From an uncultured Clostridia bacterium (GTDB taxonomy: Bacteria > Bacillota > Clostridia > TANB77 > CAG-508): a DNA stretch of 64,000 nt. Location: assembly GCA_963557785.1 (NCBI GenBank), contig CAUWBF010000004.1:36776-100775 (forward strand). The letters are read 5' to 3'. Made by a program: the position numbers and the translations under genes. Within the stretch, counting starts at the first letter, position 1. Each line of letters begins with the position of its first letter. Below the pieces are notes generated by a model that was given only the letters and a program-made list of their open reading frames with translations, did no database searches and had not been told where the DNA came from. This document shows, piece after piece, positions 24,096 to 27,042 of the stretch.

Positions 24096-24120
24096 AACTT
24101 TGCAAATAGCAAAGTTTTAT
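24095..24120. terminator. Bidirectional terminator (AAAACTTTGC-AAATA-GCAAAGTTTT)
   Basis: Perfect 10 bp inverted repeat with flanking A/T runs between convergent genes. Confidence 0.5.
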
Positions 24121-25919
24121 TTTACTTTAGAATCTTTTTCAAAAACTTTATTGATATCATTTTGTACTGTTTCTTGAGCTATGACTTTTGTTTGTATGTT
24201 TTCATTTACAGTTAATTTACCTATATCTATAGGTGTTATAATAAAATCTTTGCTTTTAGAATATTCTTGCATTTGAACAACTATAGTTTTAGCAGTTGAA
24301 ATCAAATCATTTCTTCTTTGAGTTAATTCACTATCTCTATGATTAATAACATCATTCATCATTTTATAATAAGGCAATGCTCTATAGTCATTTACTACTT
24401 GATTTAAGTTATTTATATTATCCTGACCTACTTTATTAGTTAAAGCATTTGAATCTGGCTGAATCATTGCATCGATTATGTCTGAATGAAAAGTATTCAT
24501 AAATGGTAAAACTACAGAATTTAATTGCTCATAGGAGCTAGAGCCACGAGTTTTTGAATTTTGTGGGTCATCAAATAAATAAATTCCTTTATCATGCAAA
24601 TCGTCTGTAATTTTAATTGCAAGTTGATGATGTATATTTTCAGATAAGTATTCATTAGGTCTAATATGATGGTTATATTCATCTTCTACTGGTTCATTAC
24701 TAAATGGATTATTAGATATATTCATATTAATAGAGTCTAAGCCTGTTTTTATGTGAAATTCATTTTCTGATATCTGTTTCATACTTAATTCTACTACATG
24801 TAAAATTTCATGTATTGTAAGCACATCGCGATATTCTTTTAACATTGCTAATATCGGTAGATGTATTATATTTACATTTTGAAATTCTCCGTTTTCATTT
24901 TTAACTACATTTGGAGTTACACAAGTCATTTTGTGTTTTACAAAATCCATATTAAAACTATCTTCAGAAAGTAAATTTAATGAACTTAGAGTATCAAGGC
25001 AGGTTTGATAGTTACCGGTAGATTTAAAAAATTCACGATCTTCTTGCAAGGTGCAATTAGTTTTAATTGCAGTTACTTGACTTGCCATTTCTGGTGATAA
25101 ATTAGGATTTACTTTTTCATATGATTCATAATAATATTTTTTATTAGGATCTGCCATACGTAATAACTCATATTTTGAATGTACAGGTAAACTAAGCGCT
25201 TTGGATACTTGTTCCTTTTCATCTTCAGGTAGCATAGGTAATAAATCTTCAAAAAACTTTTGAGTATATTTTAAAGATAATTGACTTTTCAATTTATCAC
25301 ATTGAGCGATATAATTTTTTATATCTTTATGCTCTTTTTTAAATTCTGAAAATTCTTCTTTATACTTTAAAGCAATGTCGTATACTTTATGAATATCAGA
25401 TAAAGTCTGTTTTCCTTCTTCTGTCTGAGAAAAAGAATGATAATCTTCTAGAGTAACAGAATATCCTAACTTAGATAAAACATCACAACGATTTTGAAGT
25501 TTTCTTCTTGTAGAATAATCTTCTAAATCTTCTGCAGGATCATCATCAAAAGAAAATATAGGAGAATCATCAGTAAAAGGGCGATAACCAAAATAAGTTT
25601 CTAAAATCTGACTATGTTCTTTCTTTAAATAATAAGTTCCATTCTTATACACTTCATCTGTTATATCTTGAGGTAAATCAATTCCCATATCCTCTAAAAA
25701 TTTTAATGATAATAAGTCTTCTTTATGTCTTATTATAAAGTTATAATAATTATTAACATCCTCGTAAGTAATATATGTATTAATATAAATTGTTTTTAAT
25801 CTGTCTTGAATAATAGTTCTATTTTTTTCACCATATACAGCAACAATAGAATCTATTATTTTAGGAGTTAATTCCTCCATAGTTACATTAAATTGTTTTA
25901 AAACATCACTATTTATCAT
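24117..25919 (-). CDS. Uncharacterised 600 aa cytoplasmic protein with an HExxH zincin-like motif (TIHEILHVVE)
   Basis: Long ORF with no signal peptide or TM helices. HEILH is encoded at about 24792-24806. No family is recognised. Confidence 0.5.
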   Translation of the reverse strand: MINSDVLKQFNVTMEELTPKIIDSIVAVYGEKNRTIIQDRLKTIYINTYITYEDVNNYYNFIIRHKEDLLSLKFLEDMGIDLPQDITDEVYKNGTYYLKKEHSQILETYFGYRPFTDDSPIFSFDDDPAEDLEDYSTRRKLQNRCDVLSKLGYSVTLEDYHSFSQTEEGKQTLSDIHKVYDIALKYKEEFSEFKKEHKDIKNYIAQCDKLKSQLSLKYTQKFFEDLLPMLPEDEKEQVSKALSLPVHSKYELLRMADPNKKYYYESYEKVNPNLSPEMASQVTAIKTNCTLQEDREFFKSTGNYQTCLDTLSSLNLLSEDSFNMDFVKHKMTCVTPNVVKNENGEFQNVNIIHLPILAMLKEYRDVLTIHEILHVVELSMKQISENEFHIKTGLDSINMNISNNPFSNEPVEDEYNHHIRPNEYLSENIHHQLAIKITDDLHDKGIYLFDDPQNSKTRGSSSYEQLNSVVLPFMNTFHSDIIDAMIQPDSNALTNKVGQDNINNLNQVVNDYRALPYYKMMNDVINHRDSELTQRRNDLISTAKTIVVQMQEYSKSKDFIITPIDIGKLTVNENIQTKVIAQETVQNDINKVFEKDSKVK

Positions 25920-26091
25920 TTATTATTTTTCTCCTGTGTATTTTTAATAAGAATATCATTAAGCTATTGTAAAATCAAGTAAATAGATGCAAAATAAAAA
26001 AGGTTTTATATGTTCGAAATGGGTACAAATATGGCTGTAAATAGTGAGAGATAATATCTAATAAAAATGAGCTTTAAATTAGATTTTTATT

Positions 26092-27042
26092 TTATTCAAA
26101 ATTTATATATTTTTGATTTGGGCTATTTGCTAACTTTTCAAAATTAGTTTCTTCTTGCTTTAAAAGATTTTCTAGTTCACCTTTTTTTCCGAATAACATT
26201 TTTATTGGGTCTTGTTGAGGATTAAAACATTGAAATGAGTTATCTATAAAGTCATAAAAAACAAACCCATTAAATGCATCGTGTGGTTTATGTATTATAT
26301 CTGGACGTTTTTCTAATAATGAATCTATCTGTTTCCTTGAATTTATTAACAATGGTGTAATTGTATCAAGAAAATTTAAATAAATTTTTATTATACAAAT
26401 ATTAAACTCAACTATAGATAAAGTAAATGCAATATGAGGATAATCAGCAAATTGTTTACGAATATCTTCTATTAGTTTTTCAATTTGTTCTTCTAACTGT
26501 TTGTTATGATGATAATGTGGAGTGTATAAGATGTGTTGTAAATTAAAACAACAACGATTGTTTGAATCTATAGTAGTAACGGGTAAATGACCGTGTTGTG
26601 CAAAATCTCGTAATCTTATTAAAAGCCTATAATGAAAATTTTCATCGTAAATCTTGCTTAAACAATTTTCTTTAAAATTTTTAAAATCATCAGAAGTTTC
26701 TCCCAAGTGTATTTTTGCAAATGCTTCAATAGAACTTGTTAAAGGTTTTCCAGCACTTATATAAGAGATTATAAAAGAATTAATAATTATATTATCATTT
26801 GATTTAAATTTAAACTTAAAATTTCTTATTATTGAATCGCTACTGTCTAATTGATAAAATGTTAATAAATTTTCTAAATTAAATTGGAAAATTTCAAATA
26901 ATTGGTCTATCTCTTGAAAATGTCTAGTTATTTCCACATAATTTTCTAAAATGTGTTTTTCCATGACATTAAATTTTGATATTTTAATTTTACTTATATC
27001 TATATTTAAATCCTTACAAAGAATATGTTCTACAATGTCCAT
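26092..27042 (-). CDS. Uncharacterised 316 aa protein (His/Cys-containing), upstream partner of the 600 aa HExxH protein
   Basis: Same strand and orientation, 172 nt upstream of the 600 aa gene. No family is recognised. Confidence 0.45.
   Translation of the reverse strand: MDIVEHILCKDLNIDISKIKISKFNVMEKHILENYVEITRHFQEIDQLFEIFQFNLENLLTFYQLDSSDSIIRNFKFKFKSNDNIIINSFIISYISAGKPLTSSIEAFAKIHLGETSDDFKNFKENCLSKIYDENFHYRLLIRLRDFAQHGHLPVTTIDSNNRCCFNLQHILYTPHYHHNKQLEEQIEKLIEDIRKQFADYPHIAFTLSIVEFNICIIKIYLNFLDTITPLLINSRKQIDSLLEKRPDIIHKPHDAFNGFVFYDFIDNSFQCFNPQQDPIKMLFGKKGELENLLKQEETNFEKLANSPNQKYINFE

Follow-up and report, generated by a model that had tools for sequence, protein, structure and literature searches.

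We analysed a 64 kb stretch of the genome of an uncultured Clostridia bacterium (contig CAUWBF010000004.1, positions 36,776 to 100,775; ~26% G+C), referred to below as the window, and in particular two neighbouring genes within it, whose products of 316 and 600 residues are here called ProtA and ProtB, respectively. Homologous loci are labelled L0xx, and family proteins P0xxx. A preliminary description, made from the sequence, had presented the two genes as one uncharacterised module with the character of a toxin/immunity, abortive-infection or accessory-protease system. The list of open reading frames (ORFs) agrees with that description on the coordinates and lengths of both minus-strand ORFs and on the 172 nt between them. 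The module itself does not hold: the adjacency of the two genes is a recent, strain-specific accident that has set two independent conflict-type genes side by side. The overall best explanation combines this juxtaposition with a reading of each protein, in which ProtB would be a metal-dependent effector and ProtA a nuclease of the HEPN type, and we assign it a probability of about 0.6. On one side the region is flanked by rpsF-ssb-rpsR and an alpha-amylase gene, and on the other by tRNA-Met(CAT); the features in between, in window coordinates, are as follows.

22222-22497: rpsR
24090-24122, minus strand: bidirectional terminator-like hairpin (14-pair stem and T-run), common to the ProtB gene and the convergent amylase gene
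24117-25919, minus strand: ProtB gene (600 aa), resident at the locus; from the ORF list, family profile, invariant residues, AlphaFold2 (AF2) model and synteny
25920-26008, minus strand: ProtB upstream/promoter region (89 nt), identical in L079, where it comes right after tRNA-Met
26009-30891: inserted island (4,883 bp) between the tRNA-Met 3' end and the ProtB promoter, from junction mapping against L079
26092-27042, minus strand: ProtA gene (316 aa), stand-alone, island cargo; HEPN-like R145-[D/N/H]-x3-H150-G-H152 motif at a helix end
27076-27104, minus strand: near-consensus sigma-70-type promoter of ProtA (TTGACT-17-TATAAT, 11/12), 34 nt upstream of ProtA
27451-28302, minus strand: gene for an SH3-like secreted protein (39.7% G+C), foreign in composition, island passenger
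28420-29151, plus strand: orphan Spo0A-like response regulator (Response_reg and Spo0A_C), island passenger
29209-29751, plus strand: sigma-70 family (r2/r4) factor, assigned by Pfam on the identical locus L035, island passenger
29732-30793, plus strand: putative anti-sigma factor (353 aa) with one transmembrane (TM) segment, overlapping the sigma gene, island passenger
30896-30971, minus strand: tRNA-Met(CAT), the landmark on whose 3' side the island entered

A resident gene beside a recently inserted island

The comparison that carries this result is with L079, in which ProtB is 95% identical and the synonymous divergence (dS) from the window is 0.057. The window and L079 are the same through the tRNA and 4 nt beyond it, and again across the 89 nt before the ProtB start codon; where the window has the 4,883 bp, L079 holds a 20 nt hairpin segment, and both junctions could be mapped to within a few bases. 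The segment carries ProtA, the SH3-like secreted protein, the Spo0A-like regulator, the sigma-70-family factor and the putative anti-sigma factor, and part of the region was, as had been suspected earlier, horizontally acquired. The same arrangement recurs at greater distance: L024, L042 and L079 (ProtB 48%, 67% and 95% identical, respectively) share the syntenic order pflB-pflA-ArsP-rpsF-ssb-rpsR-amylase followed by ProtB, with tRNA-Met directly upstream of ProtB, and the island is absent from all three. ProtA is also missing from L027 (ProtB 52% identical), where an unrelated secreted gene occupies the upstream position. This gene (871-1752 of L027, plus strand), which lies directly upstream of ProtB, was considered as a ProtA homologue and rejected, since it encodes a 293 aa secreted protein with an HExxH of its own (CHELVHC). 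No integrase and no recognisable att-type direct repeat was found for the island by repeat search and junction mapping.

ProtB is thus the resident gene at this locus and the island a recent arrival. ProtB stood between tRNA-Met and the amylase gene, the 4.9 kb island then inserted just 3' of tRNA-Met, leaving ProtA 172 nt upstream of ProtB, and each gene retained its own promoter. The earlier placement of both genes in an accessory block between rpsR and a tRNA-fMet therefore applies to ProtA, which lies inside the island, and fails for ProtB; the tRNA itself is called as tRNA-Met(CAT).

The contrary view, that ProtA and ProtB form a genuine two-component toxin/immunity or abortive-infection system in which one protein senses or neutralises and the other executes, draws on the co-orientation and adjacency of the genes, on a 172 nt gap in which no terminator-like site was found, on the orphan status of two proteins that both have conserved catalytic-looking motifs, and on the occurrence of both families in conflict-type contexts. 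Against it, the adjacency is confined to a single strain group (L035-L037), and a strain at a dS of only 0.06 (L079) is without ProtA and the entire island. In a species-level genome scan, none of 23 loci with ProtB relatives had a ProtA homologue within 10 kb; counted over all 27 ProtB contexts apart from the window, ProtA is likewise lacking, and the 39 loci with ProtA relatives contained no ProtB, no copy of its small partner c1 (see below) and no other gene of the window. The closest ProtA homologue outside the window strain (84% identity, L044-L046) has flanking genes unrelated to those of the window. The promoter regions are also separate: the conserved 89 nt region upstream of ProtB contains a promoter-like site of its own (25993->25966), and the near-consensus ProtA promoter is the top-scoring promoter site across 23.9-27.5 kb. 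Finally, the true coupled partners of ProtB are two other small proteins, c1 and u1. We therefore regard a two-component system of ProtA and ProtB as highly improbable, and effectively refuted. It is the mapped junctions, the island-free relatives, the separate promoters and the unrelated flanks of the ProtA homologue that identify the adjacency as accidental, and ProtA and ProtB very probably do not form a module. Neither protein matches a housekeeping family, nor are the two genes conserved together; the conflict-gene hallmarks that had been noticed belong to each gene alone and not to a joint system. Recognising this avoids the pursuit of a false two-gene system, and leaves the locus as a clean natural case of a very recent tRNA-adjacent island insertion.

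The other passengers of the island are of mixed composition. The SH3-like gene had been described as a GC-rich SH3b gene, of which the composition (39.7% G+C against 26% for the window) is confirmed and the domain assignment is less secure, corresponding to a sub-threshold SH3_3 match (E = 0.06). This gene is foreign even inside the island, where the regulator gene has 19% G+C, and the contrast between the two suggests that the island is probably a mosaic. A sigma/anti-sigma circuit had been noted in the flank as well, and the sigma factor and Spo0A-like regulator do adjoin the SH3-like gene; together, the Spo0A-like regulator, the sigma-70 r2/r4 factor and the anti-sigma factor look like a portable regulatory circuit.

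ProtB family and putative active site

ProtB belongs to a family of considerable size. A word-indexed search returned 23 clusters, whose members are named nothing but 'hypothetical protein', and an exhaustive profile search extended this to 851 clusters (50% identity), of which 288 reached E <= 1e-30. All organism-labelled members derive from metagenome-assembled genomes (MAGs) of uncultured Clostridia or Bacilli, several of them from human-gut studies, and the family is absent from viral contigs (IMG/VR) and from phage and plasmid collections. ProtB contains a single HExxH motif, HEILH at residues 370-374, followed by VVE, which the preliminary description had already pointed out and which is a genuine conserved site. 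An alignment of 62 members with ~20-25% identity shows G30, H370, E371, H374, E377, G393, E427 and Y463 to be invariant and R420, E423 and E464 to be nearly so; H370, E371 and H374 are also invariant in a smaller alignment of 21 sequences. Because H370, E371, H374 and E377 are retained in all 62 members at such low overall identity, conservation of the motif is far beyond chance. The conserved acidic residues that follow the motif are not those previously proposed, which were placed ~20 residues downstream in gluzincin fashion; they are E377, three residues after H374, and E423 and E427, 49-53 residues after it. As had been said of ProtB, no hydrophobic window indicates a TM helix or signal peptide, and as judged from its sequence the protein is cytoplasmic as encoded.

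The AF2 model of ProtB is confident (predicted local distance difference test score, pLDDT, 89; predicted template modelling score, pTM, 0.82) and has helical regions at both ends, a long one at the N-terminus and another at the C-terminus, with a small alpha/beta core between them. The core comprises a beta-hairpin (333-354), the HExxH helix (361-376), three strands, and a helix (423-443) that carries E427 and E423. In such an arrangement H370 and H374, from one helix, and E427, from the later helix, would bind a metal ion, E371 would serve as general base and Y463 as transition-state helper, as in a gluzincin-type hydrolase. The arrangement fits a gluzincin-type site, and the active site so defined is putative, being deduced from residue conservation.

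Neither ProtB nor ProtA has a curated match, in agreement with the earlier statement that neither could be assigned to a described family. For ProtB, no match was found in Pfam, NCBIfam, PADLOC or PHROGs, no sequence relative in the PDB, and no solved structural relative of the modelled fold. Pfam scans of the 62 members and of 26 core sequences gave no recurrent weak family, only faint DUF2268 and M10 matches in one or two of the 62. In Firmicutes, a cytoplasmic HExxH protein of ~600 aa is usually the M3B oligoendopeptidase F (PepF), which ProtB resembles in size, cytoplasmic location, mostly helical structure and single HExxH; this assignment was rejected, as ProtB has no Peptidase_M3 profile match and no neurolysin-like fold. 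Identity with a known Tox-MPTase domain was likewise rejected, given the lack of a Pfam match and the small size of those domains (PMC3482391), and the S8-PTS system (PMC9424270) was set aside as unrelated. Beyond the motif itself, ProtB shows none of the testable features by which membership of the described families would be recognised. ProtB therefore represents a sizeable dark family of uncultured low-GC gut Firmicutes, with a sharply conserved HExxH...E...Y signature and two equally undescribed partners, and it is a tractable target, being soluble and offering clear point mutants.

Partners, carrier proteins and possible role of ProtB

Most ProtB relatives appear to be translationally coupled to a downstream protein of 143 aa, c1, and/or to an upstream protein of ~110 aa, u1. 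The c1 gene (~143 aa) lies downstream of ProtB in 17 of 28 distinct contexts, representing at least four kinds of genomic setting, and in the loci with gene calls (L024, L025, L026 and L027) it overlaps ProtB by 8 nt. The u1 gene (~105-125 aa, with the C-terminal motif G.N.[FY]P..Y..F) adjoins ProtB in seven contexts (L009, L010, L014, L016, L020, L023 and L041), upstream in six and just downstream in L023; in L020 and L041 there is an 8 nt overlap with the start of ProtB. Neither c1 nor u1 has a Pfam or PDB relative, and neither is present in the window. Cluster 46, with ORFs of 115 aa in L012 and L017, was considered as u1 and rejected, as by eye these ORFs look like histidine-triad (HIT) proteins (HxHxHxx).

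Several observations concern the settings in which c1 occurs. ProtB is found between spoVAD and spoVAEB, in opposite orientation, in L001, L003-L008, L011, L013, L015 and L018 (at ~9.4-14 kb in each), a position that breaks up the normally contiguous spoVA operon, and c1 follows ProtB in all of these spoVA-group loci except L013. In L002 (9625-9990) and L012 (7639-8196), additional c1-like paralogues follow the ProtB-c1 pair ~5-7 kb further downstream, indicating that the c1 domain also occurs apart from ProtB.

The distribution of c1 around the window speaks to its role. It is present in L024 and L027 and absent from the window, L042 and L079, where ProtB abuts the amylase terminator. In relatives c1 takes the place that the terminator-like hairpin (24090-24122) has in the window; the lineage that includes the window, L079 and L042 has lost c1 by a clean deletion. 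ProtB has persisted here under purifying but relaxed selection (omega < 1), and since it does so after the deletion, c1 is not an essential antitoxin at this locus.

Relative to its neighbours, ProtB evolves fast. It is 48% identical to its counterpart in L024, compared with 55-95% for 11 other syntenic genes (63-95% if a cohesin-like surface protein is left out), and 67% identical to that in L042, where amylase and rpsR are 95% and 100% identical, respectively. In the L001-type spoVA group the mean identity of ProtB is 53%, against 76-95% for neighbouring genes, with c1 the second fastest at 71%. In both of these syntenic groups, no gene evolves faster than ProtB. When the window is compared with L079, ProtB has an omega of 0.38 and amylase one of 0.04 at the same dS, a nine-fold difference. 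In four MAGs (L009, L010, L013 and L016) ProtB is split into two or three ORFs; these interruptions are pseudogenes or assembly errors, and are consistent with dispensability.

These rates bear on whether ProtB might be a lineage-specific housekeeping or developmental peptidase of the cytoplasm, for example in sporulation or protein quality control, with c1 as its regulator and its fast evolution reflecting low constraint on the long helical regions. The stable vertical position of ProtB in two genus-level groups, one of them inside the spoVA cluster, its omega below 1 and the relative conservation of c1 would all suit such a role, as would a cytoplasmic protein of 600 aa with a single HExxH, similar in size to cytosolic oligopeptidases. 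ProtB is, however, unlike M3/PepF or other peptidase families in sequence or fold, is the fastest-evolving gene of both syntenic blocks with an omega nine-fold that of its neighbour, is interrupted repeatedly in MAGs, occurs also in Bacilli MAGs (L020-L023), and has been taken up as cargo in type VII secretion system (T7SS)-type and giant multi-module proteins, as described next. We consider a housekeeping role improbable.

Three ProtB family members sit inside giant proteins. In P0099 (1333 aa), which is made up of an N-domain, a carrier region and the ProtB module, the C-terminal 600 residues constitute the entire module. P0099 is encoded in L038 right after a 1547 aa protein with FHA and FtsK_SpoIIIE domains, the architecture of EssC, and its first ~90-100 residues are common to three neighbouring proteins of 424, 460 and 1032 aa (50-57% identity), two of which carry an HExxH of their own. 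This locus (L038 1-16700; NCBI OW818670.1) thus has an EssC-type ATPase flanked by four paralogues (424, 460, 1333 and 1032 aa), two of which are followed by small genes of 78-82 aa. By analogy, its layout is that of a type VIIb polymorphic effector locus, and the ~100 aa N-domain of the paralogues, which Pfam does not call LXG, may be a new domain for T7SS trafficking. P0177 (3054 aa) also contains the P0099 carrier region, together with the ProtB module and two further HExxH segments; P0177 and P0222 (2427 aa; L040) both embed the module, bear other long N-terminal regions, and contain no Pfam domain. By eye, the C-terminus of P0177 seemed RelA/SpoT-like and that of P0222 papain-like, resemblances that Pfam does not support and that were not used as evidence. 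Among the 150 best family representatives listed, a shared N-terminal domain before the ProtB module occurs only in P0099, and the window ProtB begins directly with the conserved module of the family, with no N-terminal trafficking domain. EssC homologues were missing from the 64 kb window and from 25 of the 27 other ProtB contexts. In the two remaining, EssC is adjacent to the ProtB homologue (L038) or 5 kb away from it (L020); the proximity in L020 was given little weight because the intervening genes encode cell-wall enzymes.

An intracellular role is the other alternative to be considered. Here ProtB with c1 (and u1) would be a type II/IV-like toxin-antitoxin or abortive-infection protease, not secreted, and kept inactive by its small partner until a trigger such as phage infection frees it. 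Nearly all members are stand-alone proteins with no signal peptide or recognisable trafficking domain, T7SS genes are absent within 10 kb at most loci, the 8 nt overlaps with c1 and u1 recur in the loci checked, and the ProtB-c1 pair is fast-evolving in two lineages, all of which speak for such a system. Yet ProtB has no PADLOC match, its neighbourhoods are housekeeping regions and not defence islands, and it is absent from viral contigs, phages and plasmids. Moreover, in the window, L042 and L079 ProtB has stayed intact under purifying selection with both c1 and u1 missing. This speaks against a lethal toxin in need of an antitoxin, and fusion to a T7SS-type carrier points to export. Taken together, an intracellular system of this kind is unlikely, if still a serious contender.

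The described proteins that ProtB may most resemble in the way it works are the metallopeptidase cargo domains of polymorphic toxin systems, an analogy that has clear limits. These domains (Tox-MPTase1-5, ALF-MPTase, HopH1 and PVC-metallopeptidase) are ~100-200 aa in length (PMC3482391). Like the polymorphic-toxin zincins (PMC3482391), ProtB has a helix-borne HExxH and a downstream conserved Glu; in P0099 of L038 it is a C-terminal cargo behind a shared N-terminal domain and beside a T7SS ATPase; and the family has a small gene immediately downstream and evolves rapidly. Unlike them, ProtB is an indivisible module of ~600 aa with no sequence, profile or fold match to any of these domains, its conserved Glu lies ~53 residues downstream, and its signature adds an invariant Glu at +3 and an invariant Tyr. 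Most members are, in addition, stand-alone proteins with no trafficking domain, inherited vertically at fixed loci, and the partner c1 is both dispensable and better conserved than the putative toxin.

A second comparison is with the LXG/T7SSb effector-immunity systems, exemplified by the Tel toxins of Streptococcus intermedius and the LXG toxins of Bacillus subtilis. L038 resembles these in having an EssC-type ATPase amid paralogues that share an N-domain and differ in their C-termini, with small genes between them. It departs from them in that the N-domain is not called LXG, and no WXG100 or Lap-type targeting partners were identified; the window ProtB, for its part, has no such domain, and no T7SS gene accompanies it in the 64 kb window.

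Taken with its putative site, this context suggests that ProtB is a protease-type effector or toxin module, whose small partners would act as inhibitor, immunity factor or chaperone. The conflict-type effector reading draws on the fast evolution of ProtB, its interruption in MAGs and the T7SS fusion. Several observations weigh against it. Structurally, the three beta-strands that follow the HExxH helix are unusual for zincins, and full-length and core-only profiles compared with PDB and Pfam retrieved no known peptidase. The T7SS link is provided by one clear fusion, P0099, with no T7SS gene in the window, and ProtB is inherited vertically at fixed positions, unlike shuffled toxin cassettes. 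As for the partner, ProtB is intact with all its catalytic residues in the window despite the loss of c1, which is evidently dispensable, and c1 is better conserved than ProtB in 90 of 91 pairs, a poor fit to a co-evolving immunity protein. Balancing these points, we place the proposal that ProtB is a metal-dependent peptidase-type effector, its role being read from genomic context, a little short of even odds. If ProtB were indeed a protease effector, the T7SS and polymorphic toxin repertoire of gut commensals would be extended; as a large hydrolase effector exportable by T7SS, it would give the gut microbiota a weapon or host-interaction factor of a kind not seen before.

ProtA as a candidate HEPN-type RNase

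The ProtA family profile comprises 222 clusters, all of them unannotated. In an alignment of 36 sequences the invariant residues include E44, D83, N88, S96, Y132, R139, R145, Q149, H150, G151 and H152, with a core of the form L-R145-[D/N/H]-F-[A/S]-Q-H150-G-H, and the invariant acidic residues E44 and D83 lie upstream of the R145/H150 motif. HEPN active sites follow the pattern Rx4-6H, in which the residue after Arg is typically Asn, Asp or His (PMC3710099); because R145 is always followed by Asp, Asn or His, with H150 further on, the ProtA motif has the HEPN form. In the AF2 model (pLDDT 87, pTM 0.87), helix 136-148 ends within the motif and H150 is situated in a loop. The preliminary description of ProtA as His/Cys-rich was overstated: His is mildly enriched (4.4%), the conserved residues being H41, H150 and H152, and Cys accounts for 1.9% of the sequence with no position conserved.

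The contexts of ProtA are those of a stand-alone, mobile single-gene cassette of mobile elements and defence islands. In L028 a mobilisable element carries it, with AbiEii on one side, an integrase on the other and QatABCD close by. In L031-L034 it marks the constant border of a hotspot; what lies at the opposite border changes between Mrr, a DpnII restriction-modification (R-M) system, a reverse transcriptase, nSTAND3, AAA+/S8 and an integrase. Other neighbours are relaxase/MobC and type I and II R-M systems. Among 150 pooled neighbour proteins, XRE regulators, integrases, type IV secretion system coupling proteins, type I R-M, SLFN-like helicases and HNH proteins recur, and no neighbour is conserved across the ProtA contexts. 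One viral contig (IMG/VR) contains ProtA, and the sole library match of ProtA is a weak one to PHROG 30874 (E = 6e-7), a group with no described function.

ProtA may therefore be compared with the stand-alone HEPN proteins of abortive infection (Abi), namely Abi2/AbiD/AbiF, AbiV, AbiJ and AbiU2 (PMC3710099). It resembles them as a helical, single-gene product of ~300 aa whose R-[D/N/H]-x3-H motif, at the end of a helix, is invariant, and which is found in R-M/defence islands and in integrative or mobilisable elements. It differs in lacking a profile match to Abi_2, HEPN_AbiV or other Pfam and PADLOC HEPN models, in the extension of its motif to QHGH, and in ~150 further residues that form helices and beta-hairpins. 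Such a protein would act as a stand-alone HEPN-fold RNase of the Abi type, and integrative and mobilisable elements would transport it as a lone cargo gene.

Two results count against this view: ProtA has no match in Pfam (36 members searched), NCBIfam or PADLOC, including any HEPN or Abi model, and sequenced phages and plasmids do not contain it. Searches of the PDB by sequence and by profile were also empty. It could be, then, that ProtA is a helical-bundle protein of another function, either a regulator or a protein that binds metal through the QHGH histidines, and that its R-x4-H is coincidental. Such a coincidence would have to extend to a motif of specifically HEPN form, placed at a helix end that runs into a loop (PMC3710099), to at least eight HEPN-fold structures in the top 60 of 48,164 chains, and to mobile-element and defence-island contexts typical of Abi-type HEPN proteins; we consider it unlikely, although far from negligible. 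That ProtA is an HEPN-type RNase defence gene with an abortive-infection-like action has, in our estimate, slightly better than even chances, and it would probably constitute a new family within the HEPN superfamily. ProtA is accordingly a candidate for a new single-gene HEPN defence family that PADLOC and Pfam have missed. The most far-reaching form of both readings is put forward tentatively and is rather doubtful as a whole: ProtB would represent a new class of metal-dependent hydrolase effectors, large (~600 aa), unlike any solved protein in structure and widespread in uncultured gut Firmicutes (at least 851 clusters at 50% identity), which would have u1 and c1 as dedicated partners and could be T7SS cargo, and ProtA would represent a new single-gene HEPN abortive-infection family.

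Beyond the tRNA, two segments of the window, 32014-33562 and 33855-34472, hold competence genes. The comM gene is split in the window and in the identical locus L035 into ORFs of 228 and 285 aa, and is a single 510 aa gene in L024; dprA encodes 205 aa in the window versus 298 aa in L024. The competence genes of the window strain thus look degraded. The cohesin-like protein mentioned above (31170-31871, plus strand) is a C-terminally anchored surface protein; it shares 55% identity with the orthologue in L024, and of the genes in the syntenic block ProtB alone has diverged further.

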